50,284 nt of DNA from an uncultured Candidatus Bathyarchaeia archaeon. Lineage in GTDB: Archaea; Thermoproteota; Bathyarchaeia; Bathyarchaeales; Bathyarchaeaceae. Made by a program: the position numbers and the translations under genes. Under the pieces are notes generated by a model. The model searched no databases. It was not told the DNA's origin and was given only the letters and a program-made list of their open reading frames with translations. Positions 8,929 through 33,093 of this stretch are shown piece after piece. The stretch lies in the NCBI GenBank assembly GCA_964347825.1, contig CAYFZQ010000003.1:1-50284 (forward strand), written 5' to 3'. Position 1 is the stretch's first letter, and every line of letters starts with the position of its first letter.

Positions 8929-9291
8929 GTGAACGGCAAACCAAAGAAGCTTGAGAAGCCGCGATCTTCTGAAAAAGCGGCTCCTGTTTCAACCAGCTTC
9001 TCTGCAAAAGCCTACGTCAAAGCCCTTCCTTTACGTTCCCTTGATGATGTGCACATCGTCAAAAATGAGGTTCAATCAGGAAACATCCTGATCCTCAGGA
9101 TTAGTCCTCTAGCGAAGAAGAGTGTTGGGGATGTTAAACGCGCTGTTGATGAATTGTGCAAGTTTGTTGAGTCAATTGGAGGGGACATCGCTCGTTTAGG
9201 AGAGGAGCGTGTGGTTGTCACACCCTCCGCGGTCCGCATTTGGCGGGAAGAGCCCACGGCGTCGGAAACGAGCGTGCCTACCGCAGCCTGA
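8929..9291 (+). CDS. sepF: Cell division protein SepF (DUF552)
   Basis: The conserved core is LRSLDDVHIVKNEVQSGNILILRISPL...VDELCKFVESIGGDIARLGEERVVVTPSAVRI. GTG 8929 gives about 120 aa. The track ORF start (8806) lies upstream of a TATA-like CTTAAAAG and encodes Arg/Cys-rich junk. Confidence 0.7.
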   Translation: MNGKPKKLEKPRSSEKAAPVSTSFSAKAYVKALPLRSLDDVHIVKNEVQSGNILILRISPLAKKSVGDVKRAVDELCKFVESIGGDIARLGEERVVVTPSAVRIWREEPTASETSVPTAA

Positions 9292-11215
9292 TGGTCTCCA
9301 GGACTTCGGGCACAATGGTCTCGACTTTGTATTTCCGTCGGACGACGTTGGCCACGTTTAGGCACTTTCTCCGTTCCCCGTGGCCTACTATCACTTTCTC
9401 GGGTTTCGGCTTCATCCGCCGCAGATAGTTGAAGATCTGCCGTCTATCCGAATGTCCAGAAAACCCTTCGATCGACTCAACGTTGAGATTTGCCTTGACA
9501 ACCTCGATTTTTCCTCTCCCATTCAGCATCGGCATATCCCCCATCCCTTTCTGCAACCGACTACCCAGAGTTCCTTCAATCTGGTAGCTGACGAAGATTA
9601 TCGTGTTACGCTTATCCGAAGCCAAGCGTTTGAAGTAGTCGATCACTGGACCGCCTTCTAACATTCCTGAGGTCGCCATTATTATGCATTGGTCGCCATT
9701 CACGATCTCTTCCCTGGCGCTAGGATGCTCCACTATGGTGAAGTAGTCGGATTGGAAGGGGTTAACGCCTTCATGCAGAATGTTGTTTCGCACCCCCCTC
9801 GCTAGATATTCGGGATAGGCAGTATGGATGGCTGTTGCTTCGGAAATCATTCCTTCGATGAAGACTGGCGCCTCGGTCATCAAGCCTCGCCGCATGTATC
9901 CGTCGATGATTAGCATGATTTCTTGAGCCCTGCCAACCGCTGGAACGGGAATTAAAACCCGACCGCCTTGGTCTAAGGTTTGATTCACCACAAACGCGAA
10001 TTTCTTTTCAGCCTCTATTCTCGACGGCATTATATCCCTTGGCGATCCGTAGGTGCTCTCCGTTATGATGGCCTCGACCCTTGGAAAAGTCGTGACAGCC
10101 GGTTCAAGGAGCATGGATTGCCCGTACTTGTAATCGCCAGTGTACACGACGTTGTACAAACCTTCTCCGATATGAAGATGAACTAGGCTTGAGCCGAGAA
10201 TATGCCCAGCGTTATGCAAGGTCAGCCGGACATCAGGGGCTATATCAGTTACGGCGCCGTGGCGCAACCTAATTGTATGCAAGACGGCTTCTCGTACGTC
10301 CCTTTGATCATACGGTGGTATAGTTCCTTGTTTGCTCGAAACGTCAAGGTAATCCAGTTGAAGCAGCGTCATAAGACTCGAGGTGGGCGACGAGCAATAG
10401 ACAGGTCCGTCATACCCATACTTGAACAAAAACGGCAGAAAACCACAATGATCTAGATGGGAGTGACTTATGACAACGGCGTCCAGCGTGTCTGGATCAA
10501 ATTGAGGGGCATCCAACCTGGGAAAAGTGTTTAGCGGGTCGGTGGAACCCGGGTTAATGCCGCAGTCCAGTAGAACATTGCTTTCTCTCGTTTGCACGAG
10601 TATCGCCGATCGTCCAACTTCTTGAAACCCGCCTAAAGCAGTAAGTCGGACGTCCCCGACGCCGTGGTAAGCAGGTCGAAAGATCCGCTCACCAATTGTG
10701 CGAAGGATTCTCTCGCGTTCTTTGCTCTCACTGTGCAGAAAGTGTCGCACGTGCGCCATGATCTTTGACGGAATGGGAGGACTCCTAAGAACACGTGGTC
10801 TCCACCGGGTTTGCTTCACAATCTCTTGCAGGGTCGCGCCGTCCTTTCCGATGGCAAGTCCGGGTTTCTTCGCTTCTATGACAACCTCGCCCAAGCTGGG
10901 ATCAAAGGTTATGTTGGTGATCTCTGCGTCACGGGGGACTACCGACTGTATTGTTCGTTCTGCCTCTCTTTCTTCTAGCCTAACAGCTGGATCAGAACGG
11001 ACCACAATTCGCTTCCTGATCAAGTTAACAATGTCGGCGACTATGTAGCTCTGCTCGATCAGAATCTCCGGCTTTTTCGTATATACTGCTAGCGCAGGGC
11101 CCTCAAATTCGATGCGCGTGACTTCGGCTTCTTTGGGTATGTGTTCCAGTATATGCTGGCTAACTTCTAGCTTTCCTCTATCCGACGCTGTCACGCTTTT
11201 TTGTCGCTCCATCAA
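9278..11215 (-). CDS. fttA: aCPSF1 / FttA: KH-KH-metallo-beta-lactamase-beta-CASP ribonuclease (transcription termination factor)
   Basis: 645 aa with two N-terminal KH-like modules, HSHLDHCG (the HxHxDH motif) and a beta-CASP region. The stop of psmB overlaps its start. Confidence 0.9.
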   Translation of the reverse strand: MMERQKSVTASDRGKLEVSQHILEHIPKEAEVTRIEFEGPALAVYTKKPEILIEQSYIVADIVNLIRKRIVVRSDPAVRLEEREAERTIQSVVPRDAEITNITFDPSLGEVVIEAKKPGLAIGKDGATLQEIVKQTRWRPRVLRSPPIPSKIMAHVRHFLHSESKERERILRTIGERIFRPAYHGVGDVRLTALGGFQEVGRSAILVQTRESNVLLDCGINPGSTDPLNTFPRLDAPQFDPDTLDAVVISHSHLDHCGFLPFLFKYGYDGPVYCSSPTSSLMTLLQLDYLDVSSKQGTIPPYDQRDVREAVLHTIRLRHGAVTDIAPDVRLTLHNAGHILGSSLVHLHIGEGLYNVVYTGDYKYGQSMLLEPAVTTFPRVEAIITESTYGSPRDIMPSRIEAEKKFAFVVNQTLDQGGRVLIPVPAVGRAQEIMLIIDGYMRRGLMTEAPVFIEGMISEATAIHTAYPEYLARGVRNNILHEGVNPFQSDYFTIVEHPSAREEIVNGDQCIIMATSGMLEGGPVIDYFKRLASDKRNTIIFVSYQIEGTLGSRLQKGMGDMPMLNGRGKIEVVKANLNVESIEGFSGHSDRRQIFNYLRRMKPKPEKVIVGHGERRKCLNVANVVRRKYKVETIVPEVLETIRLR

Positions 11216-14076: not shown

Positions 14077-14931
14077 CTACCACTCAGTTTCTTCTTCGGC
14101 TTCTTCCTCTGTTGTCGCTATCTCCTCTTCATGGGGAGAAGTTTCTTCTGTTGGGGTCTCTGTCTCTTCTTCTGTTGCTGTTTGAGCTTCTTCCACTTCT
14201 TCTTCGACAGCTAGTTCTTCATTAGATGCCGCCTCAGGTTCTGTGACAGTCTCTTCTGGTGAAGAAACCGTCTCTTCGAGCTCTTCAACGGATGATTCGG
14301 AAGGCGTCTCAAGGCTCTCCTGAACGGGCACTTCTTCAACAGGTGCTGCTTCGATTGCCGCTTCACTGACCTGTTCAATTGTTGTCTCTTCGCCGGCCGC
14401 TTCGATTTCTTCTGGTGTTCCAGTCGGCTGTTCAACCGCGATTTCTTCAGAAGGCGTTTCGGCTTCTTCGGGTATTCCAACAGGGGCTTCTTCAACAGGA
14501 GTTTCCACTGGTATCTCAGCCGTTTCTTCAGCGATCTCTTCTGTTGGGGGCACCTCTGCTTCCGCAGTTTCTTCTGGTTCTGCTGGTTCCGCTGGCACAG
14601 GAGGAGTGACTGCTTCAGGTAGGATGTCGCCGACTATTCCCTTGATGCTGTCGAGTTGTTGTCTAAGAGCGTCAAGTCCAAGGCTGAAAGCCTGACTTTC
14701 CCGTTCGTGAAGCTGATCGTCGATTTCGCCGGCCACGTGCTGAATCTCTGAGTTGGCTAGGAAAATCTCTAGCGTGTTGATCTGATCTTCGAGTTGGGTG
14801 ATTTTTGATGTCATTGTCTCGGCTAACGCTTTCTGCCTCTTCTCAATCTCGGCGATTGTGTTGCTGATGTCACTGTTGAGGGATTCGAAAGTGGATTCGG
14901 AGATCTTCTCTGCGTTGAACAGATCGTCCAA
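14077..14931 (-). CDS. Hypothetical coiled-coil protein with a long acidic E/T/P/A-rich low-complexity tail
   Basis: About 110 aa of heptad-like helix (ISNTIAEIEKRQKALAETMTSKITQLEDQINTLE...) are followed by about 170 aa of Glu/Thr/Pro/Ala repeats ending EEETEW. TTG start at 14931. Coding-like sequence continues upstream (see findings). Confidence 0.6.
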   Translation of the reverse strand: MDDLFNAEKISESTFESLNSDISNTIAEIEKRQKALAETMTSKITQLEDQINTLEIFLANSEIQHVAGEIDDQLHERESQAFSLGLDALRQQLDSIKGIVGDILPEAVTPPVPAEPAEPEETAEAEVPPTEEIAEETAEIPVETPVEEAPVGIPEEAETPSEEIAVEQPTGTPEEIEAAGEETTIEQVSEAAIEAAPVEEVPVQESLETPSESSVEELEETVSSPEETVTEPEAASNEELAVEEEVEEAQTATEEETETPTEETSPHEEEIATTEEEAEEETEW

Positions 14932-17180: not shown

Positions 17181-18392
17181 TCAGAAGATTGAGATCTTCC
17201 CGCTTGCCAAGTCGCTGCAAAACGTCCCTATGTTTTCCAGTTCGTAATCGACGACCTCTTCTATTTCTCGCTGAACACTCTTGAAAGCGTTGCCCTGTTT
17301 CATGACAACTTGGGCAGCGGCAATAGCGGGCTGATCAATGGGTTTCCCTATCTGACTGAGCAACCAGATATATACTTCCGCTAATCCTGAGACTTTGTTG
17401 TAGATGTCATCTGCGATCTTATGTGTGAGAGAGTTGTAGATCTTGCCTACGTGGCTGACCGGATTCTTTCCAGCAGCAGCCTCAGAACAGAAGGGTCTGT
17501 TTAGGGGTATGACACCGTTGGTGCGGTTGCCTCGACCAACCTGACCCGAGTCGCCAGCCTCTGCACTAGTGCCCAGTACCGTGATGTAGACGCCTTCTAC
17601 GCCTTTGGCCTTCTCGTCAAGGGTGTTTAAGTCTACGTTGACCTTCTCGAAGTCTGTGTTTTCTTTCACGAATCTACGGATCTCTTCTTCCAGGGCGGCT
17701 TTCTTTCGGAAGTAATCCTTCTCGTTGTTCACATAGCGGTCAACCAGCGCCATCGCCAAAGTTAGGTTCAACTTGTTGTTCCTTCTGAATCCCATGACTT
17801 TGACGTCTTCGCCAGATTCTGGAAAGCGTTTCTTGAACTCGGGCGAGTTCACATGATTCTCAAGGCTCAAGACAATCTGCTCAGTTCGGGTCATCGGAGC
17901 GTAGCCAACTGCAGCGGAAGTGTCATTGGCACCTAGGACTCTCCCCCTTCTGTCGAATATGTCCATTAGTTCAGGATGCCCTGGCTTTAACTGAACCTGA
18001 TACTCCACATGCTTCTCCGGATCAACGAATCGCAGATTCTCCTTCACCCACTCTTTGGCCGTTTGAATAGCAATTTCCTCAACTGGTATGTGGACTCCAC
18101 CCACCTCGAATGTTGCCCTGTCACCGATAACGAGGAGCATCGGCTTCCGTATGGTACCGCCTCCGAAGCGGGTTTCCGCTTCGCCAGCAGCCAAGAGAGA
18201 TTTGTCAATGTTGTGATGCCTTATTCCACCAGTCTTGCTCTTGTACTCTTGGCTGAGTTGCACTGAGATTCGGTCCATTATGGCATCGCAGATGTAATCT
18301 GGGTGGCCCAAGCCCTTTCTCTCAACTATCTCCAATTGCTGTCCTTCAACAGGCGTTTGCTTTAGAACGTCAACAAGTATGTTCCTGACCAT
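17181..18392 (-). CDS. mat: Archaeal-type S-adenosylmethionine synthetase (methionine adenosyltransferase)
   Basis: MVRNILV...VERKGLGHPDYICDAIMDRIS...GDSGQVGRGNR is the archaeal MAT signature. ATG at 18392 gives 403 aa. The 109-aa N-terminal extension in the track ORF overlaps the divergent regulator and is discarded. Confidence 0.9.
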   Translation of the reverse strand: MVRNILVDVLKQTPVEGQQLEIVERKGLGHPDYICDAIMDRISVQLSQEYKSKTGGIRHHNIDKSLLAAGEAETRFGGGTIRKPMLLVIGDRATFEVGGVHIPVEEIAIQTAKEWVKENLRFVDPEKHVEYQVQLKPGHPELMDIFDRRGRVLGANDTSAAVGYAPMTRTEQIVLSLENHVNSPEFKKRFPESGEDVKVMGFRRNNKLNLTLAMALVDRYVNNEKDYFRKKAALEEEIRRFVKENTDFEKVNVDLNTLDEKAKGVEGVYITVLGTSAEAGDSGQVGRGNRTNGVIPLNRPFCSEAAAGKNPVSHVGKIYNSLTHKIADDIYNKVSGLAEVYIWLLSQIGKPIDQPAIAAAQVVMKQGNAFKSVQREIEEVVDYELENIGTFCSDLASGKISIF

Positions 18393-18422
18393 CTGAGATC
18401 GCCTTGGCGGACGTTTAGAAAC

Positions 18423-18479
18423 GATAACAGATATATATTTTGCGATATCAGTTATACATGGAAAATAACCTCGGGTTAT
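18423..18479. promoter_or_regulatory. Divergent promoter/operator region: two inverted repeats sharing ATAAC/GTTAT half-sites around an AT-rich TATA core
   Basis: The first is GATAACAGATAT-(10 nt ATATTTTGCG)-ATATCAGTTATA, with arms matching 10 of 12 (18423..18456). The second is a perfect ATAACC-TCG-GGTTAT (18465..18479). Both lie between mat (start 18392, minus strand) and the HTH-CBS gene (ATG 18502). Confidence 0.5.
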
Positions 18480-18501
18480 CATCGTGGTCGTCAACGGATC
18501 C

Positions 18502-19026
18502 ATGCTCAGGAGACTTAGGCAGGAAGTTGGACTAACACAGAGGCAACTCGCCAAGTTAGTAGGAGTTTCACAAGCCCACATCTCCAAGATCGAAGGGCAG
18601 AATGTAGATCCTCGACTATCCACGGTAAACAAGATTCTCATGGTCTTGACCGAAGGGAAAGGCAAGAAGTGCCATGAAGTCATGACGAAGAACGTCCTCT
18701 TCGTGACTCCACAGGACAAGGTTCTGAAAGTCAGTCAGGTTATGATGAGAAACGCGATATCTCAAATCCCAGTGATCGATGACGGGCGTGTTGTAGGCAC
18801 CGTGACAGAGGAGGGCATTGTCAGGAACTTGAGCTCCACGATAGCCGATGAGAAAGTTGCAGGAGTAATACAAGCGCCGCTGCCAAGCGTTCCTCATGAT
18901 ACTGACTTGAGTTTGATCAGGCCACTACTGGAGGAGCATCCAGGTGTGTTGATCGTAGAGAAGGACGAGATCGTCGGTATCATAACGAGGTCAGATCTCT
19001 TGAAGACCCTCTCCAGACCCATATAA
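18502..19026 (+). CDS. XRE-family helix-turn-helix transcription regulator fused to a CBS-domain pair
   Basis: MLRRLRQEVGLTQRQLAKLVGVSQAHISKIEGQNVDP is a Cro/C1-type HTH. It is followed by two CBS motifs (VMTKNVLFV...ISQIPVIDDGRVVGTVTE and ...HPGVLIVEKDEIVGIITRSDLL). ATG 18502 is preferred over GTG 18484. Confidence 0.8.
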   Translation: MLRRLRQEVGLTQRQLAKLVGVSQAHISKIEGQNVDPRLSTVNKILMVLTEGKGKKCHEVMTKNVLFVTPQDKVLKVSQVMMRNAISQIPVIDDGRVVGTVTEEGIVRNLSSTIADEKVAGVIQAPLPSVPHDTDLSLIRPLLEEHPGVLIVEKDEIVGIITRSDLLKTLSRPI

Positions 19027-19111
19027 TCCGTTGATGGATTTCTGTATAGACACGCGATGGCAGATCACTCTGAGTTACATAGGAGTTTATGTGAAGTTGT
19101 TACAAAGATTG

Positions 19112-19118
19112 ATAAATA
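19112..19118 (+). promoter_or_regulatory. TATA-box-like ATAAATA upstream of purF (near-leaderless mRNA)
   Basis: Centred about 25 nt upstream of the purF ATG at 19140, with no Shine-Dalgarno-like element between. Confidence 0.35.
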
Positions 19119-19139
19119 GCCGATCTCATACTTCAAAAT

Positions 19140-20630
19140 ATGCTAGAACATTTAAAAGAAGCCTGCGGAGTCTTCGGAGCACAAGACCTTGGCGGCGGTC
19201 CGGTGTTCCCGTATATCTACTGGGGGTTAAGATCGCAAAATCATCGAGGGCACCAGTCGCACGGTTTTCTCACTTTCGATGGGACCTTCCATGTGCGCAA
19301 AGGCTTGGATCTGGTTCCGAAGCTGAAATCGAAAGATGTCGAAAAATGGTTGCGTGATTTGCCTGGCTACGTAGGTGTAGGAAACGTACGGTACACGACT
19401 TCCGGCGGGACAGATGAAAGATCGCTAGTTGAGGGAACTCAGCCATTCTTGACCAGCACAGACAAGAAGAGAATGGCGGTCTCATTCAACGGCAACATTG
19501 TGAATACCGCTCAGCTCACAAAGGAAATCAGACGCCAGTTCCCGGGATTCTGTTACGAATGCGACGGAGAATTGATCTGCCGAAAGCTCCTGTTGGGACT
19601 ATTGAAAAATCATGATTTACGCTCGTCTGTCAAGACCTGCATGAAAGAGGTAGAAGGCGCCTTTTCCGTTGCCGGAGTAACTCAAAAAGGAGAGTTATTC
19701 GCCTTCAGAGACCCCTACGGAGTAAGACCGCTTTGCTGCGGGAACGGCAACCATCGGCAAATCCGTGCGGTGTCCTCCGAAACCGTTGGTTTGGACATCA
19801 ACGGGTTTGAGCACAGCTTTGAGGTAAAACCTGGGGAGTTCGTGGCTGTGACTCAGGATGGTTTTGAACGGGAGCAACTTGTTGAATGTGAGAGAAAAGC
19901 TCTTTGTGCTTTCGAATTTGCCTACTTCGCTAGGCCAGACTCTAGGCTTGGAGATCAATTTGTGTATGAGGTGAGAGAGAACTTCGGACAAAACCTTGGT
20001 AGAGAATACCCTGAGATTGCCGCAAACGCGGATATCATTCTCTCGATGCCCGAAACGGGTGATGACTCTGCTTTAGGTCTTCACGAAGAGACGGGCGTCC
20101 GTTGGGAACGAGCCACAAGGAGACATAGATACGTAACGGAACGAGCCTTCATTCTCTTGCCAGAAGAACGCCATAGCACCATTGACAGAAAGATCAACAT
20201 TCTCGACCACAAGATCTCAGGGAAGACAGTTGTAGTTACTGAAGACAGTATCGTCAGGGGCGACACGACGAAAGTTGTGGTCAAGAAACTGCGTAGAATG
20301 GGTGCCAAGAAGGTCTATCTATTTATCACCTTCCCAAGGATTATCGGCCCCTGTTTCTATGGCGTTGACATGGCCACCTATGGTGAATTGATAGGTTCCA
20401 GATATGATGCTGAAGAAATCGCCAGGATCATTGATGCTGATGCCGTCTGCTATCAATCGGTAGCAGGATTCGTCGAAGCCACTGGTTTCGACAAGAACGA
20501 GTTGTGTCTGGGATGTGTTACTGGGGAATATCCGACTCCACTGGCGCAAAGGCTAGCTGACAAGATGAAGAAACACTTTGACAATGGACACAAAGAGATT
20601 GGGCGAATATACGAAATGGCAGTTGCTTAG
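19140..20630 (+). CDS. purF: Amidophosphoribosyltransferase
   Basis: A propeptide precedes the catalytic Cys (ACGVFGA). An Ntn glutaminase domain is followed by a PRTase domain (VVVTEDSIVRGDT). Confidence 0.95.
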   Translation: MLEHLKEACGVFGAQDLGGGPVFPYIYWGLRSQNHRGHQSHGFLTFDGTFHVRKGLDLVPKLKSKDVEKWLRDLPGYVGVGNVRYTTSGGTDERSLVEGTQPFLTSTDKKRMAVSFNGNIVNTAQLTKEIRRQFPGFCYECDGELICRKLLLGLLKNHDLRSSVKTCMKEVEGAFSVAGVTQKGELFAFRDPYGVRPLCCGNGNHRQIRAVSSETVGLDINGFEHSFEVKPGEFVAVTQDGFEREQLVECERKALCAFEFAYFARPDSRLGDQFVYEVRENFGQNLGREYPEIAANADIILSMPETGDDSALGLHEETGVRWERATRRHRYVTERAFILLPEERHSTIDRKINILDHKISGKTVVVTEDSIVRGDTTKVVVKKLRRMGAKKVYLFITFPRIIGPCFYGVDMATYGELIGSRYDAEEIARIIDADAVCYQSVAGFVEATGFDKNELCLGCVTGEYPTPLAQRLADKMKKHFDNGHKEIGRIYEMAVA

Positions 20631-20682
20631 ACGAAGGCAATTGAGGATTCCAGTAGAAGTCGATGAATATTGAGGTGATCTA

Positions 20683-22092
20683 ATGGACCGAGTTGGGATA
20701 CTAGTCGTGTCCTATGGTTCAAGAGGAGTAGCCGTGATAGACGCGTTCAGTCGCAGTGAAGACTATGATGCAGAATTCTACATTGCAGACAAACAGAGGA
20801 ATCCCTTTAACGCAAAAAAAGCGAGAAAACATGCTGTCATACCAGATCTTGATGTAAAGAAGATCTGCAGGTTTGCCAGAAAACATGAGAACAAGATCGA
20901 CTTCGGCATCGTGGGACCTGAAAAACCGATAATCAATGGCGTAAGAGACCTCTTTGAGGTAGAAACGCACATCCCCCTAATCTGCCCGACCAAAAAATTC
21001 GCAATAGAAGGAAGCAAAGTCGCGCAACGCTATCTCCTGGAACAAGTCGCTCCGGAAGCGAACCCAAGGTTCAGAGTGTTCGATCCCGCAGAGCATGGCA
21101 GCAAGAGTAAAGTGCGCAAAAAACTCGCTGCCTGGCTAGATGAACTCAACAACCGAGTCGCCGTCAAGCCGGACACCCCCGCCGCCGGAAAGGGAGTGGG
21201 TGTGTGGGGTGATCACTTCACAACGCGCAAGGGGTCGCTGGAGCACTTCCTGGCCAACTACGAACATGGTCCAGTACTAGTTGAGGAGAAGGTAGAAGGT
21301 GAAGAGTCAAGCTTTCAAGCTTTCTGTGACGGCAAACACATAGTTCCCCTGCCGGAGACTCGCGACTACAAGAGAGCATTCGACAACGACAAAGGACCAA
21401 ACACCGGAGGAATGGGATCATACAAAGACTCTGGCGACCTCTTGCCTTTCATGACGCCAGCAGATCGCCAGAAAGAGCTGAGAATCGTAGAAAAAGTCTT
21501 CAAGAAACTTAAGGGGAAGGGAAGCAATCCTGAGCTGCAAGGCATTCCGTTCTATTATGCATTCATCCACACCAGCAACGGACTAAAAATCCTCGAAAAC
21601 AACAGTCGCCCGGGCGATCCTGAGATACAGAACCTGCTGCCTGTGCTGAAGGACGACTTCGTCGAAGTTTGCTTCAAGATACTAGACGGCAACCTAAGAC
21701 GAGTCGAATTTGACAAACGCGCAACTGTTGTGATCTACAAGGCCCCCCCAGGATATGGAGGATTCATGAACGTCTTTCCTGAACAGGTAGAGAAGAATGA
21801 GGTGGGCAAACCTGTGGACTTAGGTGGCGCCTACAGACTAGAAGAAGAATATGGTGAGGCGATCAGAACCTATCCGGGATCAATGGAATTGAGAGAGGAC
21901 AAAACCTACGCCCTCACGTCACGAACTGTATGCGTCGTAGGCGTGGCAGACGATATTCCGAGAGCCAAAGAGATCTCGGTCGACGGGATAGAGGCGATTA
22001 AGGGGGGTTCGCTGTGGTTTAGAAGAGACATTGCCTCCGAAGAGCACGTCAAGAAGAGCATTGCACACATGCGAACCCTGAGGAAACGCTAA
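20683..22092 (+). CDS. purD: Phosphoribosylamine--glycine ligase
   Basis: ATP-grasp fold with GPNTGGMGSY and NSRPGDPE motifs. 469 aa, with insertions relative to the bacterial enzyme. Confidence 0.9.
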   Translation: MDRVGILVVSYGSRGVAVIDAFSRSEDYDAEFYIADKQRNPFNAKKARKHAVIPDLDVKKICRFARKHENKIDFGIVGPEKPIINGVRDLFEVETHIPLICPTKKFAIEGSKVAQRYLLEQVAPEANPRFRVFDPAEHGSKSKVRKKLAAWLDELNNRVAVKPDTPAAGKGVGVWGDHFTTRKGSLEHFLANYEHGPVLVEEKVEGEESSFQAFCDGKHIVPLPETRDYKRAFDNDKGPNTGGMGSYKDSGDLLPFMTPADRQKELRIVEKVFKKLKGKGSNPELQGIPFYYAFIHTSNGLKILENNSRPGDPEIQNLLPVLKDDFVEVCFKILDGNLRRVEFDKRATVVIYKAPPGYGGFMNVFPEQVEKNEVGKPVDLGGAYRLEEEYGEAIRTYPGSMELREDKTYALTSRTVCVVGVADDIPRAKEISVDGIEAIKGGSLWFRRDIASEEHVKKSIAHMRTLRKR

Positions 22093-23180
22093 TGGCTAGC
22101 GACCGACTATTCATCTCCGATTGTGAAGGTCCCGTATCAAAGAACGATAACGCATTTGAACTGACAAACAACTTCGTTCCACATGGAGATTACTTCTTTG
22201 CATTGGTAAGCAAATACGATGACATGCTTGCCGATGTCCTCAAGAAACCTGGCTATAAAGCTGGATACACCCTGAAGTTGATTCTACCCTTCTTGAAGAC
22301 CTACGGAGCGACCAACCGCAAGATGAAGGAGTACTCTGCAAAGAACATCCTACTCGTCCCAGGAGCCCAAGAGACGCTCGGATTCGTCAAAGACACAATG
22401 CCATCCTTTATGGTCAGCACCAGTTACGAACAGTACATTTCCTCCCTATGCACACTCGTAGGCTTTCCATACGAGAACACCTACTGCACGAAACTAGACT
22501 TAGACAAATACGAAGTCAGCGAGAGCGAGAAGAGGAAACTGAGAAAAATCCGAGAAGAAATCTCGCACATGCCCATGATCGAAATCCCGGAAAACGCCCA
22601 ATCCGTACAAGACTTCTCCACCAGAGATCAGAAGACAATCCAGCGACTAGACGAAATATTCTGGAATATCATCGCTGAGATGAAATCGGGCATCATGCTT
22701 CAGGAGGTTCAACCTGTCGGTGGTAGTGAAAAGGCTAAGGCGGTTCAGAATGCCGCCGAGAAGATGAATGGAAATCTTCAAGACGTGATGTACGTGGGTG
22801 ACAGCATAACGGATGCCACGTGTTTTCGGTTAGTGAGAGAAAATGAAGGGTTAACCGTTTCTTTCAACGGCAATGAATACGCTATCAAAGAAGCGGAGAT
22901 TGCTGTTCTCTCCGACAATACCATCGTCACTTCAGTTCTTGCCGACACCTTCAACACGGCAGGCAAAGACGGCGTGATCAACCTTGTCCGAGAGTGGGGA
23001 CATTCCGGACTGACGAAACACTGTGCCAACTCGACGCTGAGAAATCGCGCTTTCAAACTGTATCCTGAGAAGCTTCCTCAAGTCGAAATGACAACTCCGG
23101 CCAACAAAGAAAGGCTGATAAGAGAAAGTAATGCATTCAGAAAAAGAGTTAGAGGAGAAGCGATAGGAAGACTTGGATGA
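22092..23180 (+). CDS. Uncharacterised HAD-fold-like protein (recalls the archaeal family annotated 'energy-converting hydrogenase A subunit R')
   Basis: 362 aa. N-terminal LFISDCEGPVSKNDNAFEL has D-x-E in place of the HAD DxD. A C-terminal VGDSITD (motif IV-like) follows a large cap insertion. The ATG overlaps the purD TAA. The family assignment is from memory and unverified. Confidence 0.4.
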   Translation: MASDRLFISDCEGPVSKNDNAFELTNNFVPHGDYFFALVSKYDDMLADVLKKPGYKAGYTLKLILPFLKTYGATNRKMKEYSAKNILLVPGAQETLGFVKDTMPSFMVSTSYEQYISSLCTLVGFPYENTYCTKLDLDKYEVSESEKRKLRKIREEISHMPMIEIPENAQSVQDFSTRDQKTIQRLDEIFWNIIAEMKSGIMLQEVQPVGGSEKAKAVQNAAEKMNGNLQDVMYVGDSITDATCFRLVRENEGLTVSFNGNEYAIKEAEIAVLSDNTIVTSVLADTFNTAGKDGVINLVREWGHSGLTKHCANSTLRNRAFKLYPEKLPQVEMTTPANKERLIRESNAFRKRVRGEAIGRLG

Positions 23181-23230
23181 TTTAGTCAACCAGTTTCACA
23201 ATAGCTCGTTTCTGCTCAAGGAGAAATCAC

Positions 23231-24136
23231 ATGCAGCCCGAAATCGATGACACCTTCGCCGAAGCCTTCCAAGGCTTGTACTGCAGAATCATCGTGACTG
23301 CTGATGATGAAGTTGTCTTGCGGGAAGCAGCTCAAGATGCAACTGCGATGCCTTCAGTGGTCATCGGAAGGACGGAAGGGGGCGTTGAGAAGTATCTCAG
23401 TGAGGCGCAGACTTTAGACGGACGTAGGGGCGCAGTCTTGCAGTTTTGGGGCGCGATCGATGAAAAAAAACGTCTTGTCGATTCAGTGGAGAAGCTTGAA
23501 AAGGAGCTATCGTACCGCATACGCCAAGACATACTCGTCAAACCCTTCACCGCGATTTTTGATGCCCATCCCAAGCCCGAAGGTAGACTTGACATGATGA
23601 AAAGGGTCGGTCACTGTGGAGACGGATTTGAGTGGGAGGAGAAACGCTATGGGCGCAACATGATCATCGTGCCAATCATGGTTCCTGACTTCCAGATCGA
23701 ACGCTACTTGGGGTATGGTAGGGGGGTGATGGGGGCAAACTTCTGGTACATGTGCAGGACCAAAGAGTCAGTGACAACTGCCGGCAGAAAGGCGCTGCAA
23801 GCCATAGGCGAAATTGAAGGATCCATCACACCTTTCGGCATCTGCTCGGCAGGGTCCAAACCTGAGACCAAATTTCCGTGGATAGGTCCAACCACGAATC
23901 ACTTTTATTGCCCCACATTGAAAGAACGACTAGACAGAGAGTCACGGGTCCCTGCAGGCATCAGTTACATTCCAGAAATTGTGATCAACGGTTCTTCACT
24001 GGACGTTGTCAAGAAGGCAATGAAAGTCGGCATTCAGAGCGCGCTTCATGTAGCTGGCGTCGCTAGAATCTCCGCAGGCAATTATGGGGGAAAACTCGGA
24101 AAGTACAAAATCCACCTGCGAGAGTTGTTCAAATGA
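23231..24136 (+). CDS. ftr: Formylmethanofuran--tetrahydromethanopterin N-formyltransferase family protein (Ftr/FhcD-like)
   Basis: 301 aa, collinear with Ftr. N-terminal [30 protein letters not shown] and C-terminal [21 protein letters not shown] closely parallel Methanopyrus Ftr (EDTFAEAF ... ISAGNFGGKLGQYEIHLHDLF). The N-terminal lobe is more divergent. Confidence 0.8.
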
Positions 24137-25035
24137 AACTCGATGTCATCGGCTTCGGCGCCGTCAACTTAGATAGGCTATATAGAGTCGACTTCATTGC
24201 CAAAGAAGACGAGGAAAGCTCTATCCTAGATCTAACAGAGTCTCCGGGGGGTTCCGCAGCCAACACGATTGTTGGTCTGGCCAGGCTGGGGTTGAAGACT
24301 GGATTTGTCGGCAAAGTCGCTGAGGATCGCGCGGGAGAGCTTCTTCTGAAGGATTTCACAAACGAAAATGTGGATTTGAGCGGCATCGGGATTTCCAAAA
24401 CCGGTAGAAGCGGCACCGTCATGGGCTACGTGGACAAGAAAGGCGGCAGAGCACTCTACGTTGATCCAGGTGCCAATGATCTCCTAGAATTTGGCGAAAT
24501 CGATCTAGAATACGCCAACAACACTAAGTTCTTCCATCTAACATCCTTCGCCGGTGGAAAACCTTTCCAAGCTCAATGTAGACTCGTCAAGACTCTTTCT
24601 GACGTTGCGATAAGCCTTGATCCTGGCACTCTATATGCTAGAAAGGGCTTAGAGTCTTTGAAGCCCATTGTAAAACGTTGCTCAGTAATGTTTCCAAGTG
24701 GGCATGAAGTGAAGCTGCTCACTGGAAAAGACTATGAAAAGGGATCCAAGATTCTGACAAGAAAGGGTGTTGACATAGTCGCTGTGAAGCTTGGTGAGAG
24801 AGGGTGTTACGTCACAGATGGCCAAGAAAGCTATGTGGTAGAACCTTACAACGTAGAGGTCGCAGACACGACCGGGGCTGGTGATGCCTTTTGCGCCGGT
24901 TTCTTGTACGGTCTGATCGAAAACAAGGAGCTCTACGAGTGTGGAAAACTCGGGAACTTTGTGGCGTCCAGATGCATAACGAAGAGTGGCGCCAGAAGGG
25001 GACTTCCACGGCTTTCGGATTTGGGGAACATCTGA
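24133..25035 (+). CDS. PfkB-family carbohydrate/nucleoside kinase
   Basis: N-terminal GAVNLD...GGSAANT and the C-terminal anion-hole DTTGAGDAF motif. 300 aa. The ATG overlaps the ftr TGA (ATGA). Confidence 0.8.
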
Positions 25036-25040
25036 CGGCT

Positions 25041-25859
25041 CTAGAGCTTTCGAGTCAGATATTCGACCACAGATTCGAACACTAGCCTGCCATCGCCATA
25101 GTCCGGCATCCTTTGCTGAGTTGTCCAGTCAGGAAGTTGCCAGCCGTAGTAGGCTCTCTCCGGATGAGGCATCAGACCGAAGACGATGCCACTTGGATTG
25201 CAGATTCCAGCGATGTCGTGCAATGCCCCGTTGGGATTTGCAGGATATCTTCCCTCAGCGTATTCACCGTTCTCATCGCAGTATCTGAAGACAAGTTGGT
25301 CATTGTCATACAGCTTTTCCAAGTAGTCTCTTTCCTTTTCCTTTGAGAATACGAATCGCCCTTCTGCATGCGCCACAGGGATTCTCAGTGTTTCACCTTT
25401 GGGGATGTTCTTCGTGAAGACACAGTTGCCAGAGTTTTCGTTCTTAAGGTGAATCCAAGCGCAGCGATAGCCAACAGGAGTATTGGTTGCCAGCGCAGCT
25501 TTTGGATATTCGCCGGCATTCCTAAAGCCTGGTAAGAATCCTGCTTCAACCAAGACTTGGAAACCATTACAGATTCCCATGATAGGTCTTTCCATTTCCA
25601 CGAAGCGTTTCAAGTCAGGGCCCAGTTTGGCTATGAGGCTCTTAGCTAATATGGCGCCAGCTCGAACATAGTCTCCGTAAGAAAAGCCACCTGGAAATAC
25701 AAGAGCGCTATAGTCGAGAAGGTTTCCCTTTCTGACCAATTCGTTGAGGTGAACGACTTCAGCCTTGATACCTAGGTCATCGAACGCGCTCCTAGTTTCT
25801 GCGTCACAATTCGTTCCGCCGACCCTCGCTATGCAAACGTGGATTTCAGCCTTCTTCAC
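25041..25859 (-). CDS. purQ: Phosphoribosylformylglycinamidine synthase, glutaminase subunit
   Basis: GTNCD, a catalytic Cys in GICNGFQ and HAEG in VAHAEGRF. 272 aa. Confidence 0.9.
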   Translation of the reverse strand: MKKAEIHVCIARVGGTNCDAETRSAFDDLGIKAEVVHLNELVRKGNLLDYSALVFPGGFSYGDYVRAGAILAKSLIAKLGPDLKRFVEMERPIMGICNGFQVLVEAGFLPGFRNAGEYPKAALATNTPVGYRCAWIHLKNENSGNCVFTKNIPKGETLRIPVAHAEGRFVFSKEKERDYLEKLYDNDQLVFRYCDENGEYAEGRYPANPNGALHDIAGICNPSGIVFGLMPHPERAYYGWQLPDWTTQQRMPDYGDGRLVFESVVEYLTRKL

Positions 25860-25862
25860 TGT

Positions 25863-28235
25863 TCAACCTCCTAGCGCCCTTTCCCAACAGACCCGCAGTT
25901 CAGCCAAGCTGGTGTCTATGAGTCTCTTGCCATCTAGACCGTGCACAGAGAAATTGCGATTCTTTTCGACTCTCCCGACTGCTGAATAGATCGAGCCCCT
26001 CATCAGAGTCTCGAAATCCTCTCTGCGTTTCTCGATGACTTCTACGAGGAACCGGCTGCTAGACTCAGAGAAGAGAACGAAGTCATTCCGCCGAATCTCC
26101 TTACCCCCAGGCACGTTTTCCAGAAGCAGCTTCATTCCGTAGTCGCTGCTGAAGGCCATTTCCGCCGCCGCGACCGCCAAGCCCCCCTCTGAAAGATCAT
26201 GACACGACTTGATGTACCCAGCATCTATCGCCTTTCGCATCGCATCCATGATCTTTCTCCCTTGTCTTACTCTGACCCGAGGAACAGTTTTTCCCAAGAA
26301 CCCGCTCATTTGGTAGTATTCCGAACCGCCCAATTCCGGATAAGTCTGGCCTACTAGGTAGATCGGGTTTCCTGGGTGTTTCAATTCCATTGATACCGCC
26401 TTTCTCACGTCGTTGATTATTCCGATCGCTGTGATTAGAAGCGTAGGAGTGACTGGGCCGAGAGGTGACTCGTTATAAAGGCTGTCCTTTCCTGAAATGA
26501 ATGGAGTTCCGAAGCCTTTGGCAGTGTCGTAGCAGGCTTTGCAGGCCCTCATTAGTGAAGCTAGTCTGTCAGGTTTTTCAGGATTTCCCCATGTGAAATT
26601 GTCGAGTAGCGCGATTCTTCGTCCGCCTACCGAGGTGTTGTTTCGCAGGGCTTCGTCTATTGATGACGCAGCCATCCAGTAGGGATCGATCTTTCCATAA
26701 TTCGGGTTCATGCCACAAGATATGACGAGCCCTTTCCAAGACTTTCGCAGCGGTTTGACTATTGCGGCATCATTTGGCCCACTGTATTTGCCTTGCAGAG
26801 GTTTCAGCGCAGTATTTCCTTTGACTTCATGGTCATACGTTCTCACCACTGATTCGCGACTGGCAACATTTGGGGAAGCTAGCATCTTTAATAAGACGTT
26901 CGGGAGGCTTTCTGGCTCAGCAAATTCAGGTTCAGCATACGGTGGCGCCTTCCGTCTTCCAGTCCTCTTGACTTTGGGCGGTTCAAACAAGAAATGCGTT
27001 GCTAGATACGCGACTCTCCTTCCTTGATAGTCAGCTCTAACAAACTGATCGTCTGTGAACCTGCCAATTGGAGTAGCCTGGACGTTTTCGCTCTCAAAGA
27101 TTTTCAAGGCGTCTCGAAGGTTCCTTTTGGGAACACTTATGAACATTCGTTCCTGGGATTCAGAAATGTAGATCTCCCATGGAGCCATACCTGGGTACTT
27201 CAGTGGGATTTTCTCTAGCTCGATATGCACGCCGCAGTGGGATCGGTGGGCCATCTCACCGGCAGCACTGGAAAGCCCTCCGCCGCCCAGGTCAGTTATG
27301 GCGGAGCCTAATTCTTCATCTCTTATTTGGATGATCGCACGTCGTAGTTTCTCCTCCTCGATAGGATTGGCTATCTGAACAGCTGGCCTAGATACTTCTT
27401 CAGATTCTTCTGTCAGTTCAGCCGAGGCGAAGGTCACTCCGTGAATTCCGTCCCTTCCAGTTTTTCCTCCTGCTAGAACTGCGATGTCACCGGGCATCGT
27501 GTTTCTCACAAACTTCTTCATCGGGAGGATGCCCATGCACCCACAGTAAACGACGACGTTGCCCACGTAGCTCTCGTCAAAGTAGAGTGCTCCGTTGACC
27601 GTGGGAATGCCCATGTTGTTCCCGTAGCAGCCTATGCCCGCGACAACTCCTCTGAAGACGTATTTGGGATGCTTTATTCCGAGAGGGAGCTTCTCGTATT
27701 CGAAATCCAGTGGCCCAAAACAGAGGACGTCTGTGCACGCTATTGGATCAGCCCACACTCCAAGGACGTCGCGGATTACTCCCCCTGTTCCAGTTGCTGC
27801 ACCCCCAAAAGGCTCAATGGCTGAGGGATGATTGTGCGTTTCGACTTTGGCTGCAACGGCATAGCCATTTTCGAACTCGATAATACCTGCATTGTCTTCG
27901 AATACGGAGAGGCACCAAGGCAGATTGAGTTCACGCGTTACGCCTGCTATGTATGTCTTGAACGGGCTCTCCACTTCCCCGTCTTCCGTGGTAATATTTC
28001 CTTTGAAGGTCTTGTGGAAACAATGTTCGGACCACGTCTGCCCAATTGCTTGGAGTTCGACGTCTGTGGGAGTTCTTCCATTCTTCCGAAAATATCTTTG
28101 AACGGTCTTCATCTCTCTTAGATTCAAGCCGATTCCTAGTTCTCTGCTTGCCTGCAGGAGCTGTCTGTCATCTGCATTAAGAAGGTCAACTGTAAATAGC
28201 TCGAACGGCAGATCTTGTTTGATGAACAGGCTCAT
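25863..28235 (-). CDS. purL: Phosphoribosylformylglycinamidine synthase subunit II
   Basis: 790 aa with a duplicated PurM-like fold and the ETHNHPS, GGAATGTGGVIRD and QERM motifs. Confidence 0.95.
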   Translation of the reverse strand: MSLFIKQDLPFELFTVDLLNADDRQLLQASRELGIGLNLREMKTVQRYFRKNGRTPTDVELQAIGQTWSEHCFHKTFKGNITTEDGEVESPFKTYIAGVTRELNLPWCLSVFEDNAGIIEFENGYAVAAKVETHNHPSAIEPFGGAATGTGGVIRDVLGVWADPIACTDVLCFGPLDFEYEKLPLGIKHPKYVFRGVVAGIGCYGNNMGIPTVNGALYFDESYVGNVVVYCGCMGILPMKKFVRNTMPGDIAVLAGGKTGRDGIHGVTFASAELTEESEEVSRPAVQIANPIEEEKLRRAIIQIRDEELGSAITDLGGGGLSSAAGEMAHRSHCGVHIELEKIPLKYPGMAPWEIYISESQERMFISVPKRNLRDALKIFESENVQATPIGRFTDDQFVRADYQGRRVAYLATHFLFEPPKVKRTGRRKAPPYAEPEFAEPESLPNVLLKMLASPNVASRESVVRTYDHEVKGNTALKPLQGKYSGPNDAAIVKPLRKSWKGLVISCGMNPNYGKIDPYWMAASSIDEALRNNTSVGGRRIALLDNFTWGNPEKPDRLASLMRACKACYDTAKGFGTPFISGKDSLYNESPLGPVTPTLLITAIGIINDVRKAVSMELKHPGNPIYLVGQTYPELGGSEYYQMSGFLGKTVPRVRVRQGRKIMDAMRKAIDAGYIKSCHDLSEGGLAVAAAEMAFSSDYGMKLLLENVPGGKEIRRNDFVLFSESSSRFLVEVIEKRREDFETLMRGSIYSAVGRVEKNRNFSVHGLDGKRLIDTSLAELRVCWERALGG

Positions 28236-28483
28236 TCTATTTCCTCTAACTCGAAGCTATAGTCATCTTTCGTTGGGTTTGCCAGCAGCCGTCTACACAT
28301 CTCCTCTGCTACGCCTCTAGCTTCTCTCTGTGAAGACGCTTCGAAGATTATGGAGTAGATTTTCCCGACGCCAACGCTTTTGACTGGGTAGTTCAGCTCC
28401 TTGAGAGAACGCCAAGTCATTTCGCCTTCAGGATCAGAATGCCCGGGTTTCAGTTTAACCTCGATCTTCGCGTGGAACCTCAT
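28232..28483 (-). CDS. purS: Phosphoribosylformylglycinamidine synthase subunit PurS
   Basis: 83 aa reading KLKPGHSDPEGEMTWRSLKELNY...ANPTKDDYSFELEE. It overlaps the purL start. Confidence 0.85.
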   Translation of the reverse strand: MRFHAKIEVKLKPGHSDPEGEMTWRSLKELNYPVKSVGVGKIYSIIFEASSQREARGVAEEMCRRLLANPTKDDYSFELEEIE

Positions 28484-28497
28484 GGGTTATAGTCAAA

Positions 28498-28513
28498 CAA
28501 ATAAAAATTTAAG
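28498..28513 (-). promoter_or_regulatory. TATA-like element (minus strand CTTAAATTTTTATTT) for purS-purL-purQ
   Basis: Centred about 23 nt upstream of the purS ATG, in the 208-bp gap that splits the minus-strand purine arm. Confidence 0.35.
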
Positions 28514-28691
28514 TGTTTTTGGACCGATTTTGACACTTTTCATTAACCTCGACAGGGTGAGGCTTCATTGTTACCAGTTAGGTTGTTCATGGAAATCTCT
28601 GTGTCGTGAGGCCCATACGCGATTTTCAAGCCGAAAAACGAATGCTGCAGTTGCCGAGACTAGCCGGACCTGGCAAGGCAACTCATGCTGA

Positions 28692-29087
28692 TCATCCACT
28701 GGCCCAAGTCAAGACCATAACAACGACGAGTGCGATTCCAATTATTGTCGACGATGATTCATGGTTTGACCGGAGTGCAAACGGATGGTCTTGGGTGAAC
28801 TCGGCAACAATCAAGCAGATCCCAGTACCAGCGAAAAACAGGAACGCGCTATGAACCCTCAGTAGCATTTTCAGTATAATCAACGACAGCATACCCCAAT
28901 GATAATGCTCAAAAACCTCCAGTCGCTTCTCATACTTATTACCCCCGAGTCGCCACCACAAAAAATCGAGGATCAAACCTGCTAAGAGACCTATGCAAAG
29001 CCCAATCAGAAGGGAGCCCAGTTCAAGATTGCTTCCGAAGGCTTCAACCATGCAAATGAGATTGGGCCAGCGGGTATAAGAATTCAT
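28692..29087 (-). CDS. Small integral membrane protein (about 4 TM helices), unknown function
   Basis: 131 aa with four hydrophobic segments (LGSLLIGLCIGLLAGLILDFLWW, WGMLSLIILKMLL, FLFFAGTGICLIVAEF, IIGIALVVVMVLTW). Its ATG overlaps the purM TGA (ATGA at 29084..29087). Confidence 0.6.
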   Translation of the reverse strand: MNSYTRWPNLICMVEAFGSNLELGSLLIGLCIGLLAGLILDFLWWRLGGNKYEKRLEVFEHYHWGMLSLIILKMLLRVHSAFLFFAGTGICLIVAEFTQDHPFALRSNHESSSTIIGIALVVVMVLTWASG

Positions 29088-30172
29088 TTCAGCGCTATCT
29101 TTTTGCCTTTGTACAAGGCCACGATGTGTCCAGAGTCAGTTACTCGTCCAATGCGTTCAGCGTCAACCGCCGTTTTCTTGAAACTCTCAACGACGCCATT
29201 TTCCTCGGTCTTCTCCACGATGACTGCAAAACCCCAGCCCAAGTTGAAAGTCTTCAACATCTCCTCATCTGTAATGTCACCTCTAACCTCTGAAGACGTC
29301 TTCTGAATCAGGTTGAAAATGGGTTGCGGTGCGAAGTTGTCGAACTCGAATCCGATTCCTTTGGAGAACTCCATCAGCTTATCGAACTTCAGGTAGCCGT
29401 CACCAGTAATGTGGACCACGCCCTTGAATCGATAATCCTCGGCCACGGTCAGCAGCGGCCTAGCATAGATTCTCGTTGGTTCGAGAACCTCAGTGACGAG
29501 GTCTCTGTCAAAGCCATCGGGGATATCATTCGGATTGTATTTTCCGCCCCATCGTTTGAACAGGACTTTTCTTGCCAAGGATAGACCGTTGCTGTGAATG
29601 CCGGAACTTCTCAAGCCAATTACGACGTCTCCGGGTTTTATGTTGTTTCCATATACTATTTCGTCTTCTGTCAATTCGCCTATGCAGGCGACCACCATGT
29701 CGAAGCCCTTGTCTTCTGTTATTCCTTTGATGATCTCGGCTACGTCTCCTATTTCTCCGCTTGGGACTGGACAGCCGGCTTCAGTGGCTCCTTTCGCGAT
29801 GCCTTTCATCCACGCCTCGACCAAGAGAGGACTGGAGACCTGGGCATGTATGTTGTCAACGACGGCTAGTGGGGTAGCCCCAGATCGTATCACGTCGTTT
29901 ACGGCCATGGCAACTCCGTCTACGCCGATGGTGTCGTACTTGTCCGCGAGTTGGGCCACGAGAACCTTGGTTCCGACGCCTTCGATCACTAGGTCGAGAT
30001 ATCGGTCGCCTATTGGAAAGATGTTGCCGTACGGAAGGTGGACTACCTTGCCGTATTTGCTGAGCCTGTAGGTTTGCTTGAGAGCTGATAACGCTGCTTT
30101 GGATTTCGCCCTTAGTTCTCGGTCAACACCAGCTCTGGCATAGGAGAACTCTTCGGGCACCCACTTCACCAT
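29084..30172 (-). CDS. purM: Phosphoribosylformylglycinamidine cyclo-ligase (AIR synthetase)
   Basis: PurM fold with DGVGTK-like EGVGTKV, and SGIHSNGLSL. 362 aa. Confidence 0.9.
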   Translation of the reverse strand: MVKWVPEEFSYARAGVDRELRAKSKAALSALKQTYRLSKYGKVVHLPYGNIFPIGDRYLDLVIEGVGTKVLVAQLADKYDTIGVDGVAMAVNDVIRSGATPLAVVDNIHAQVSSPLLVEAWMKGIAKGATEAGCPVPSGEIGDVAEIIKGITEDKGFDMVVACIGELTEDEIVYGNNIKPGDVVIGLRSSGIHSNGLSLARKVLFKRWGGKYNPNDIPDGFDRDLVTEVLEPTRIYARPLLTVAEDYRFKGVVHITGDGYLKFDKLMEFSKGIGFEFDNFAPQPIFNLIQKTSSEVRGDITDEEMLKTFNLGWGFAVIVEKTEENGVVESFKKTAVDAERIGRVTDSGHIVALYKGKKIALK

Positions 30173-30177
30173 GGTTT

Positions 30178-31611: not shown

Positions 31612-31658
31612 TGATATTTCTCCATTCAAATGGAGCTTCTTAGAGGTCTGACCTTCTA

Positions 31659-32501: not shown

Positions 32502-32507
32502 TTTGCC

Positions 32508-33020: not shown

Positions 33021-33093
33021 AGTTAAGGATGCAAGGAGAGAGGATTTAAGTCTTGACTGGGCGTTTGCAGGATCTGATACGAATAGCTTAGGC

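Follow-up and report, generated by a model that had tools for sequence, protein, structure and literature searches.

The 50,284-nucleotide stretch of contig CAYFZQ010000003.1 from an uncultured Candidatus Bathyarchaeia archaeon (the window) carries two divergent genes, one encoding an archaeal-type methionine adenosyltransferase (MAT), which makes S-adenosylmethionine (SAM), and the other a protein with a helix-turn-helix (HTH) domain followed by a pair of CBS domains. A preliminary description of this DNA had read the HTH-CBS protein as a ligand-gated autoregulator that also controls SAM synthetase, with further sites expected at methionine (Met) and SAM-cycle genes, and all of the sequence letters that it described were found in place. 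The elements on which the analysis turns are the following.

17181 to 18392, minus strand: archaeal-type methionine adenosyltransferase (SAM synthetase, MAT), 403 aa; PF01941, NF003363
18452 to 18464, plus strand: TTATACATGGAAA, probably the TATA region from which the regulator is transcribed; an A/T-rich block of 1.1–2 bits directly 5' of the palindrome
18465 to 18479, no strand: candidate operator, the perfect palindrome ATAACC-TCG-GGTTAT; conserved core ATAAC-N5-GTTAT, half-site centres 10 bp apart
18484 to 19026, plus strand: HTH-CBS regulator gene, 180 aa from its most likely start; Pfam HTH_3 and two CBS domains, conserved N-terminus

Profile searches bore out the archaeal MAT (PF01941, E 3.6e-167, 556.7 bits; NF003363, 642.6 bits where 557 is required). 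Its start codon occupies 18392–18390 of the minus strand. A 512-aa open reading frame (ORF) at 17181–18719, which opens with a TTG at 18719 and crosses the whole spacer before it enters MAT, was set aside as an open-frame artefact, the real MAT start being 18392.

For the regulator, 1128 homologues were found, most of them 180 aa long. They have in common the N-terminus M-x-x-T-G-S, which lies upstream of the ATG at 18502 first proposed as the start. The wobble positions of the codons for this N-terminus vary, and in most loci no other start codon follows them. These data indicate that translation most likely begins at GTG 18484, which makes the spacer 91 bp; the in-frame ATG at 18502 exists, but the 109-bp spacer that had been measured from it most likely does not.

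The description of the protein as an XRE-type HTH with a CBS pair was confirmed by matches to HTH_3 (PF01381; E 1.2e-10, 41.7 bits with a gathering score of 23, covering residues 2–49 of the 174-aa form) and to CBS (PF00571; two stretches, E 3.4e-21, 75.8 bits). A Cro/C1-type HTH with the recognition helix SQAHISK occupies approximately residues 5–55, and the CBS pair approximately residues 61–177. The AlphaFold2 model (mean predicted local distance difference test score 88.7, predicted template modelling (TM) score 0.66) places the HTH helices at 5–15, 19–26, 30–37, and 45–55, followed by a canonical CBS pair. A profile search for the family returned 815 clusters at 50% identity (E ≤ 1e-30), nearly all of 177–205 aa and matched end to end, with the HTH first and the CBS pair second. 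The regulator is a member of an uncharacterised archaeal HTH-CBS family of ∼180 aa, which we take to be COG3620.

Conserved palindrome and its covariation with the recognition helix

The short palindrome at 18465–18479 that had been pointed out earlier is present and perfect. In the window alone it is not significant by itself, with 1 site found and 0.75 expected at up to one mismatch; its significance comes from its conservation across related loci. In 440 kb of such loci there were 78 exact ATAAC-N5-GTTAT sites, one per locus and at a constant position, as compared with ∼1 after shuffling. The orthologous spacers thus contain the palindrome as well. Copies with one mismatch elsewhere in the 440 kb were few, and the one that recurs falls within the reading frame of a DHH gene.

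We footprinted 75 distinct spacers, mostly of 82–131 nt, which are phylogenetically related, so that counts among them are not independent events, and whose clades differ widely outside the conserved blocks. Two conserved blocks were found, at a fixed spacing from each other. Block 1, with the consensus AAAATAAC[CT]-N3-[GA]GTTAT, contains the palindrome and ends 2–7 nt 5' of the regulator start; each position of its arms carries ∼2 bits, as compared with 0.3–0.6 bits for the three in the centre. It is preceded by the A/T-rich sequence [CT]ATAAAAA, the form that the probable regulator TATA region takes in most relatives. The window palindrome ends 4 nt before GTG 18484, and in an Aenigmarchaeota locus (L004) the regulator ATG lies inside the palindrome. 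Because the gap of 2–7 nt between the palindrome and the regulator start holds no Shine-Dalgarno sequence, the regulator mRNA is probably leaderless, and its TATA box would abut the left arm. The operator would then be downstream of that box and upstream of the point where transcription starts. A site between these two elements is the classic position for archaeal repressors.

The family contains two main classes of recognition helix, SQAH[IV][AS]K (38 members) and SQSLIAK (58 members) in an alignment of 108 sequences, and the palindrome differs between them. All 78 spacers next to an SQAH-type helix had ATAAC-N5-GTTAT at up to one mismatch. Among 12 loci with an SQS-type helix (11 SQSLIAK and 1 SQSTIAK), this motif was found in none; 9 instead had an exact TATTC-N6-GAATA upstream of the regulator, and 2 more had it with one mismatch. 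Most of the exact sites lie at −42 to −48 from the regulator start, overlapping the expected transcription factor B recognition element (BRE). No exact copy of either motif was found elsewhere in the 105 kb of the SQS loci, and one-mismatch copies of TATTC-N6-GAATA stand before metY in L106 and before a SAM_HAT gene in L111. Within the window, no further sites of either motif were found beyond chance. The strongest computational argument that the palindromes are operators of the adjacent HTH-CBS proteins is that they change together with the recognition helix.

Pairing with methionine and SAM genes in several archaeal lineages

The named homologue matches were from Bathyarchaeota/Bathyarchaeia. 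A scan of species-representative genomes gave five archaeal loci (3 Bathyarchaeia, 1 Aenigmarchaeota, and 1 Thermoplasmata), and MAT was divergent from the HTH-CBS gene in all five. A metagenome scan, which was seeded with the peptide SQAHI[AS]KI and therefore concerns the subfamily of the window only, gave 80 loci at 63–92% identity; MAT was divergent in 76 of the 76 with enough upstream sequence, the remaining four having at most 196 nt upstream. In all, the pairing is conserved in these 76 metagenome loci, in 3 Bathyarchaeia genome loci, in 2 Aenigmarchaeota loci, and in 2 Thermoplasmata-type loci.

We also compared 14 distant family members and found that 10 of them adjoin Met/SAM genes. 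Their neighbours are as follows.

Archaeal MAT: L004, L005, L105, and L112
Bacterial-type MetK: L108
HcyBio (homocysteine synthesis): L103 (Altiarchaeota) and L110
metY-metX(-metW) with a PALP enzyme: L106 and L113 (metW in L113)
SAM_HAT, with methionyl-tRNA synthetase (MetRS) nearby: L111
No evident Met/SAM link: L099, L101, L104, and L109

HTH-CBS genes are thus paired with both archaeal MAT and bacterial-type MetK, which argues for a functional link rather than one that is merely inherited. The Met/SAM associations were seen in Bathyarchaeia, Thermoplasmata-type archaea, Aenigmarchaeota, and Altiarchaeota. Woesearchaeota and Nitrososphaerales also have family members, with no evident Met/SAM neighbour in the loci examined.

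Several of these loci merit description in their own right. In Bathyarchaeota and relatives, a second HTH-CBS paralogue with the SQSLIAK helix is divergent from metY-metX(-metW) (L113:2086–4055 and L106:1583–4020) and has TATTC-N6-GAATA at −42/−43 from its start; Bathyarchaeota thus appear to have two paralogues, of which one adjoins MAT and the other metYXW. In an uncultured archaeon (L108:2222–4145), the gene divergent from the HTH-CBS gene encodes a bacterial-type MetK (S-AdoMet_synt N/M/C) and not an archaeal MAT, and on the MetK side a TATATTC-N6-GAATATA sequence coincides in part with a TATA-like box; the start annotated for a 214-aa product is probably 20 codons too far upstream. In L111 (2175–3500), the HTH-CBS gene points away from a gene for a SAM hydroxide adenosyltransferase-like protein (SAM_HAT) and from an ORF of 61 aa, MetRS is nearby, and three TATTC-N6-GAATA-like sites are found at −359, −93, and −18.

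Proposed regulation and alternative explanations

The following elements lie on the MAT side of the spacer.

18397 to 18405, minus strand: Shine-Dalgarno-like AAGGCGATC, read from the sequence, just upstream of the MAT start
18423 to 18456, no strand: long imperfect inverted repeat GATAACAGATAT-N10-ATATCAGTTATA, 10 of 12 positions complementary; flanks ATATATAT
18431 to 18444, minus strand: probable MAT core promoter, TATA box ATATATAT (18431–18438) and BRE-like CGCAAA (18439–18444)
18445 to 18448, no strand: conserved ATAT directly upstream of the MAT BRE, 1.8–2 bits in 74 spacers

Block 2 of the spacers reads ATATCG-Y-AAA-ATATATAT on the MAT strand, with 1.5–2 bits per position in 74 distinct spacers. 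By comparison with the archaeal promoter consensus, in which a BRE accompanies the TATA box, we assign it provisionally as the BRE and TATA box of MAT. The ATAT at 18445–18448 and the CG of the BRE together form ATATCG on the MAT strand, which is almost invariant (1.5–2 bits in the same spacers). Since AGGTG/GGAGG-like words occur in relatives at the place before the MAT ATG where the window has its Shine-Dalgarno-like sequence, the MAT mRNA probably has a leader, unlike that of the regulator. An AT-rich GTTTATA block lies 10–18 nt downstream of the MAT TATA box in the relatives; we rejected it as a half-operator, given its extra base relative to GTTAT and its location, which is that of the expected AT-rich proximal promoter element. 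In ∼10 relatives (the L021 clade), ATATCG extends to TATTC-N6-GCATA, one mismatch from the operator of the sister subfamily, which hints at possible cross-regulation of MAT by a paralogous regulator.

The long inverted repeat (arms at 18423–18434 and 18445–18456) had been proposed as a further operator. It is present and complementary at 10 of 12 positions, but its arms are partly kept only in L019, the closest relative of the window, and are absent elsewhere, and we rejected it as a second operator because it is lineage-specific. Nor did the comparison bear out more than one operator, with ATAAC/GTTAT words as the four arms that would surround the TATA box of MAT: these words occur near that box in 12 of the 74 distinct spacers as compared with 6.2 expected, which is not an enrichment (the maximum in the shuffled set was 14). 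The palindrome of block 1 lies ∼20 bp from the MAT BRE and approximately −55 to −70 from the expected MAT transcription start, with 16–17 bp fixed between the BRE-flanking block and the operator in ∼74 spacers.

The computations show how the domains are arranged, that the pairing is conserved, that a single conserved palindrome stands at a constant place, that helix and operator covary, and that the family is associated with Met/SAM genes. What we infer is binding as a dimer, autorepression, which ligand is bound, and whatever effect there is on MAT. We consider it probable, by a fair but not a wide measure, that the regulator is a dimeric autorepressor gated by an adenosyl ligand, presumably SAM, and tied to Met/SAM metabolism. 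A dimer would bind ATAAC-N5-GTTAT at 18465–18479, where the half-sites are one helical turn apart. Because the operator would sit between the TATA box and the transcription start of the regulator gene, its occupancy would block recruitment of RNA polymerase and so repress the gene. An adenosyl ligand in the CBS pair would gate DNA binding. Comparison across loci gives good support both to autoregulation through the palindrome and to the Met/SAM association, as the preliminary description had proposed. Judged from the spacers, autoregulation by the HTH-CBS protein is well supported, and control of MAT in the lineage of the window is plausible but indirect.

Such control would probably be exerted through the tightly packed back-to-back promoters, with the operator tuning MAT as well. 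Its sign may differ from that at the regulator gene: because the operator is on the upstream side of the BRE of MAT, the bound form would be as likely to activate the gene as to repress it, and the two initiation complexes might equally well compete. SurR of Pyrococcus furiosus represses from a single site where that site is downstream of the TATA box and activates where it is upstream of the BRE. The divergent region of the HTH-CBS locus has the same site geometry, and by this likeness the position of the operator relative to MAT would be activating or neutral rather than occluding. SurR itself is a winged HTH protein with a redox switch, unrelated in sequence and responsive to sulfur.

With regard to the ligand, the motif G165-I-I-T168-x-x-D171 of the second CBS domain is invariant or nearly so among 108 aligned homologues. 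The form G-h-h-T-x-x-D is the canonical ribose-binding form of the CBS motif. It is kept in the second domain only, and the first has an invariant Glu109 in its place; each monomer is therefore likely to have one canonical adenosyl site. SAM would be the most probable ligand on the grounds of gene context, since it is the common denominator of the neighbouring pathways. Foldseek matched the model to CBS pairs at probability 1.00, with target-normalised TM-scores up to ∼0.8. The structural matches from Foldseek and phmmer were CBS pairs only (AcuB, MJ0922, PH0107, MJ1225, and MJ0100), and none of them was a solved structure with the full HTH and CBS layout.

Several observations weigh against a SAM-gated autorepressor that also acts on MAT. 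CBS pairs bind AMP, ADP, or ATP more often than SAM, and sequence and fold are uninformative on the ligand, the Foldseek matches being generic CBS pairs such as AcuB with AMP/ADP. Four of the 14 distant family members have no evident Met/SAM neighbour. If the regulator TATA box is the A-run that abuts the palindrome, transcription would start a few nucleotides inside the ORF. In the subfamily of the window there is a single operator, on the regulator side, and in the 74 spacers the interval from the TATA box of MAT to its start codon yielded no conserved copy. Finally, in L003 the palindrome remains on the regulator side of an insertion that separates the two promoters.

The last of these points also bear on the possibility that, in the lineage of the window, the palindrome governs only the regulator's own promoter, the true targets being elsewhere in the genome and MAT being constitutive or otherwise controlled, perhaps by way of its conserved elements ATATCG and GTTTATA. 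We regard this as unlikely, while granting it more weight than any other alternative. The single operator on the regulator side, with none between the MAT TATA box and start, is what it would predict; it is favoured as well by the unexplained conserved blocks in the MAT promoter itself and by L003 (3789–4001), whose spacer is 190 nt instead of ∼90, so that an insertion of ∼100 bp between the promoters is tolerated. The L003 assembly has frameshifts in both genes. An operator that served the regulator alone would not account for the universal adjacency of the two genes or for the fixed spacing of 16–17 bp between the BRE-flanking block of MAT and the operator. Moreover, independent lineages pair the family with two types of SAM synthetase, and in L105 and L108 we read the site as lying within the apparent core promoter of the synthetase gene.

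The regulator might instead sense energy charge or adenine nucleotides (AMP/ADP/ATP) on behalf of purine synthesis, and only incidentally control MAT as an ATP-consuming enzyme, without sensing SAM. The regulator gene heads a plus-strand run of purF-purD-HAD-FTR-PfkB genes in a purine supercluster, purF is downstream of the regulator in 25 of 47 informative relatives, and structural neighbours of the regulator such as AcuB bind AMP/ADP. The linkage to purF, however, is missing in the other 22 informative relatives and in all 14 loci of other lineages and subfamilies, whereas the linkage to Met/SAM genes reaches across phyla and persists where a bacterial-type MetK stands in for archaeal MAT. 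A purine regulon was rejected on the evidence of the genes themselves: a conserved promoter-like block that belongs to purF itself, AAAGATTGATAAATAG, precedes the ATG of that gene by ∼25 nt, and no operator copy stands before purF or the DHH gene in the 440 kb, the near-matches at +687 being within coding sequence. These results make the purine explanation distinctly improbable. It is very improbable indeed that the palindrome, although able to form a 6-bp hairpin, acts in RNA as a hairpin or terminator or is bound by some other factor. Its place is upstream of the two start codons and also of the TATA box of MAT, so that it is probably untranscribed; its arm variants are one-sided (ATAAT in five loci, GTAAT in L092) with no compensatory changes; no Rfam family matches the region; and it changes along with the recognition helix of the HTH-CBS protein next to it. 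The Rfam scan gave only two chance-level matches to unrelated families (E 0.2 and 0.9) and no SAM riboswitch, in agreement with the earlier remark that none is evident upstream of MAT.

Returning to the SAM-gated autorepressor, a broader reading is that HTH-CBS proteins are the missing Met/SAM transcription factors of Archaea, in which a Bateman module couples the concentration of SAM to DNA binding. We put this forward tentatively, at slightly less than an even chance. It would comprise at least two specificity classes, SQAHISK with ATAAC-N5-GTTAT and SQSLIAK with TATTC-N6-GAATA, which together adjoin SAM synthetase of either type, HcyBio, metYX, and the gene for a SAM-cleaving enzyme. To our knowledge, Archaea have neither the bacterial SAM riboswitches nor MetJ; the HTH-CBS family would, if this reading is true, be the archaeal functional counterpart of both. 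The locus offers a concrete protein, a delimited 15-bp operator, a second operator class in a sister subfamily, and a candidate ligand set. If the effector is SAM, we know of no earlier case in which a Bateman module switches a transcription factor in response to it, and the two helix/operator pairs would give orthogonal, compact sensor parts.

Related systems and neighbouring genes

CcpN, the repressor of gapB and pckA in Bacillus subtilis, is the only characterised transcription factor known to us with the same layout, an HTH fused to two CBS domains, and its repressor activity is modulated by adenine nucleotides. The regulator does not belong to the CcpN family, scoring 25.4 bits against the NF053704 cut-off of 260, and over the CBS region only. 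CcpN itself is bacterial, has another type of HTH, and controls gluconeogenesis rather than Met/SAM genes. Tests against HipB/XRE antitoxins likewise fell short (TIGR03070, 44 bits against 71.65; NF007271, 30 bits against 79), and no toxin partner gene stands beside the regulator, whose neighbours are MAT and purF.

MetJ of Escherichia coli is the SAM-sensing protein that we propose as the functional analogue of the HTH-CBS regulator. It uses SAM as corepressor and represses both the met genes and its own gene, and metJ is divergent from metB. MetJ, however, is a ribbon-helix-helix protein of γ-proteobacteria only, binds tandem 8-bp metboxes, and has no CBS domain; the regulator has no Pfam match to the MetJ family, and its candidate operator is a spaced palindrome, not a series of metbox repeats.

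CBS pairs arranged as Bateman modules are also found in MJ0100, of the HcyBio family, and in human cystathionine β-synthase, where they bind SAM (and, in MJ0100, also methylthioadenosine) and switch conformation. MJ0100 is a sequence match to the CBS part of the regulator (E 2.3e-8), and HcyBio genes neighbour some family members. In both of these proteins, however, the CBS pair regulates an enzyme and not DNA binding, and the similarity is CBS-generic and silent on ligand specificity.

MetJ has been listed among SAM-binding regulators (PMC1282579). In bacteria, SahR/SamR and the SAM and SAH riboswitches have been described as placing the genes of methionine metabolism and the SAM cycle under feedback from SAM or S-adenosylhomocysteine (SAH) (PMC4239095). 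Those systems use other folds or RNA, and no riboswitch is present here; the neighbours of the HTH-CBS genes are biosynthetic (MAT, HcyBio, and metYX) and do not include SAH hydrolase. HhpR of Pyrococcus yayanosii, which has four CBS domains, is an archaeal CBS-domain protein that acts as a transcription factor; it differs in having no HTH and in responding to pressure, and the regulator scores 31.1 bits against the NF053603 cut-off of 520. Uncharacterised proteins with HTH and CBS domains have been noted in Thermococcaceae (PMC11705074). In the full-text literature we found no published description of the HTH-CBS family or of an archaeal SAM-responsive or Met/SAM regulator, and the present candidate is apparently undescribed.

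Contigs of wetland metatranscriptomes from relatives at 90–97% identity covered MAT, and the regulator more thinly, so that transcription of both genes is seen, and none crossed the spacer. This is weak evidence that MAT and the regulator are on separate divergent transcripts; the contig ends are too coarse to place a transcription start.

The purine supercluster extends over 19140–34422. Its plus strand carries purF, purD, a HAD-like gene, an FTR-like formyltransferase gene, and a PfkB kinase gene, and its minus strand carries purQ, purL, purM, PurP (DUF1297/DUF1246), and purC at 25041–32501, with glutamine synthetase next. A conserved promoter-like block, GTTACAAAGATTGATAAATAG, occupies 19096–19139 of the window and ends ∼25 nt 5' of the purF ATG; it is common to the window and L019, L020, L047, and L049, and it suggests a leaderless purF with its own promoter. 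In many Bathyarchaeia, a gene for a DHH-like protein of 391 aa (L034:3595–4770) lies between the regulator and purF, and in the window purF follows the regulator directly. Three further genes of the window, at 156–1025, 9278–11215, and 14077–14931, encode housekeeping markers that typify this archaeal lineage, namely the NucS endonuclease, the FttA/aCPSF1 termination factor, and a CdvA-like division protein.

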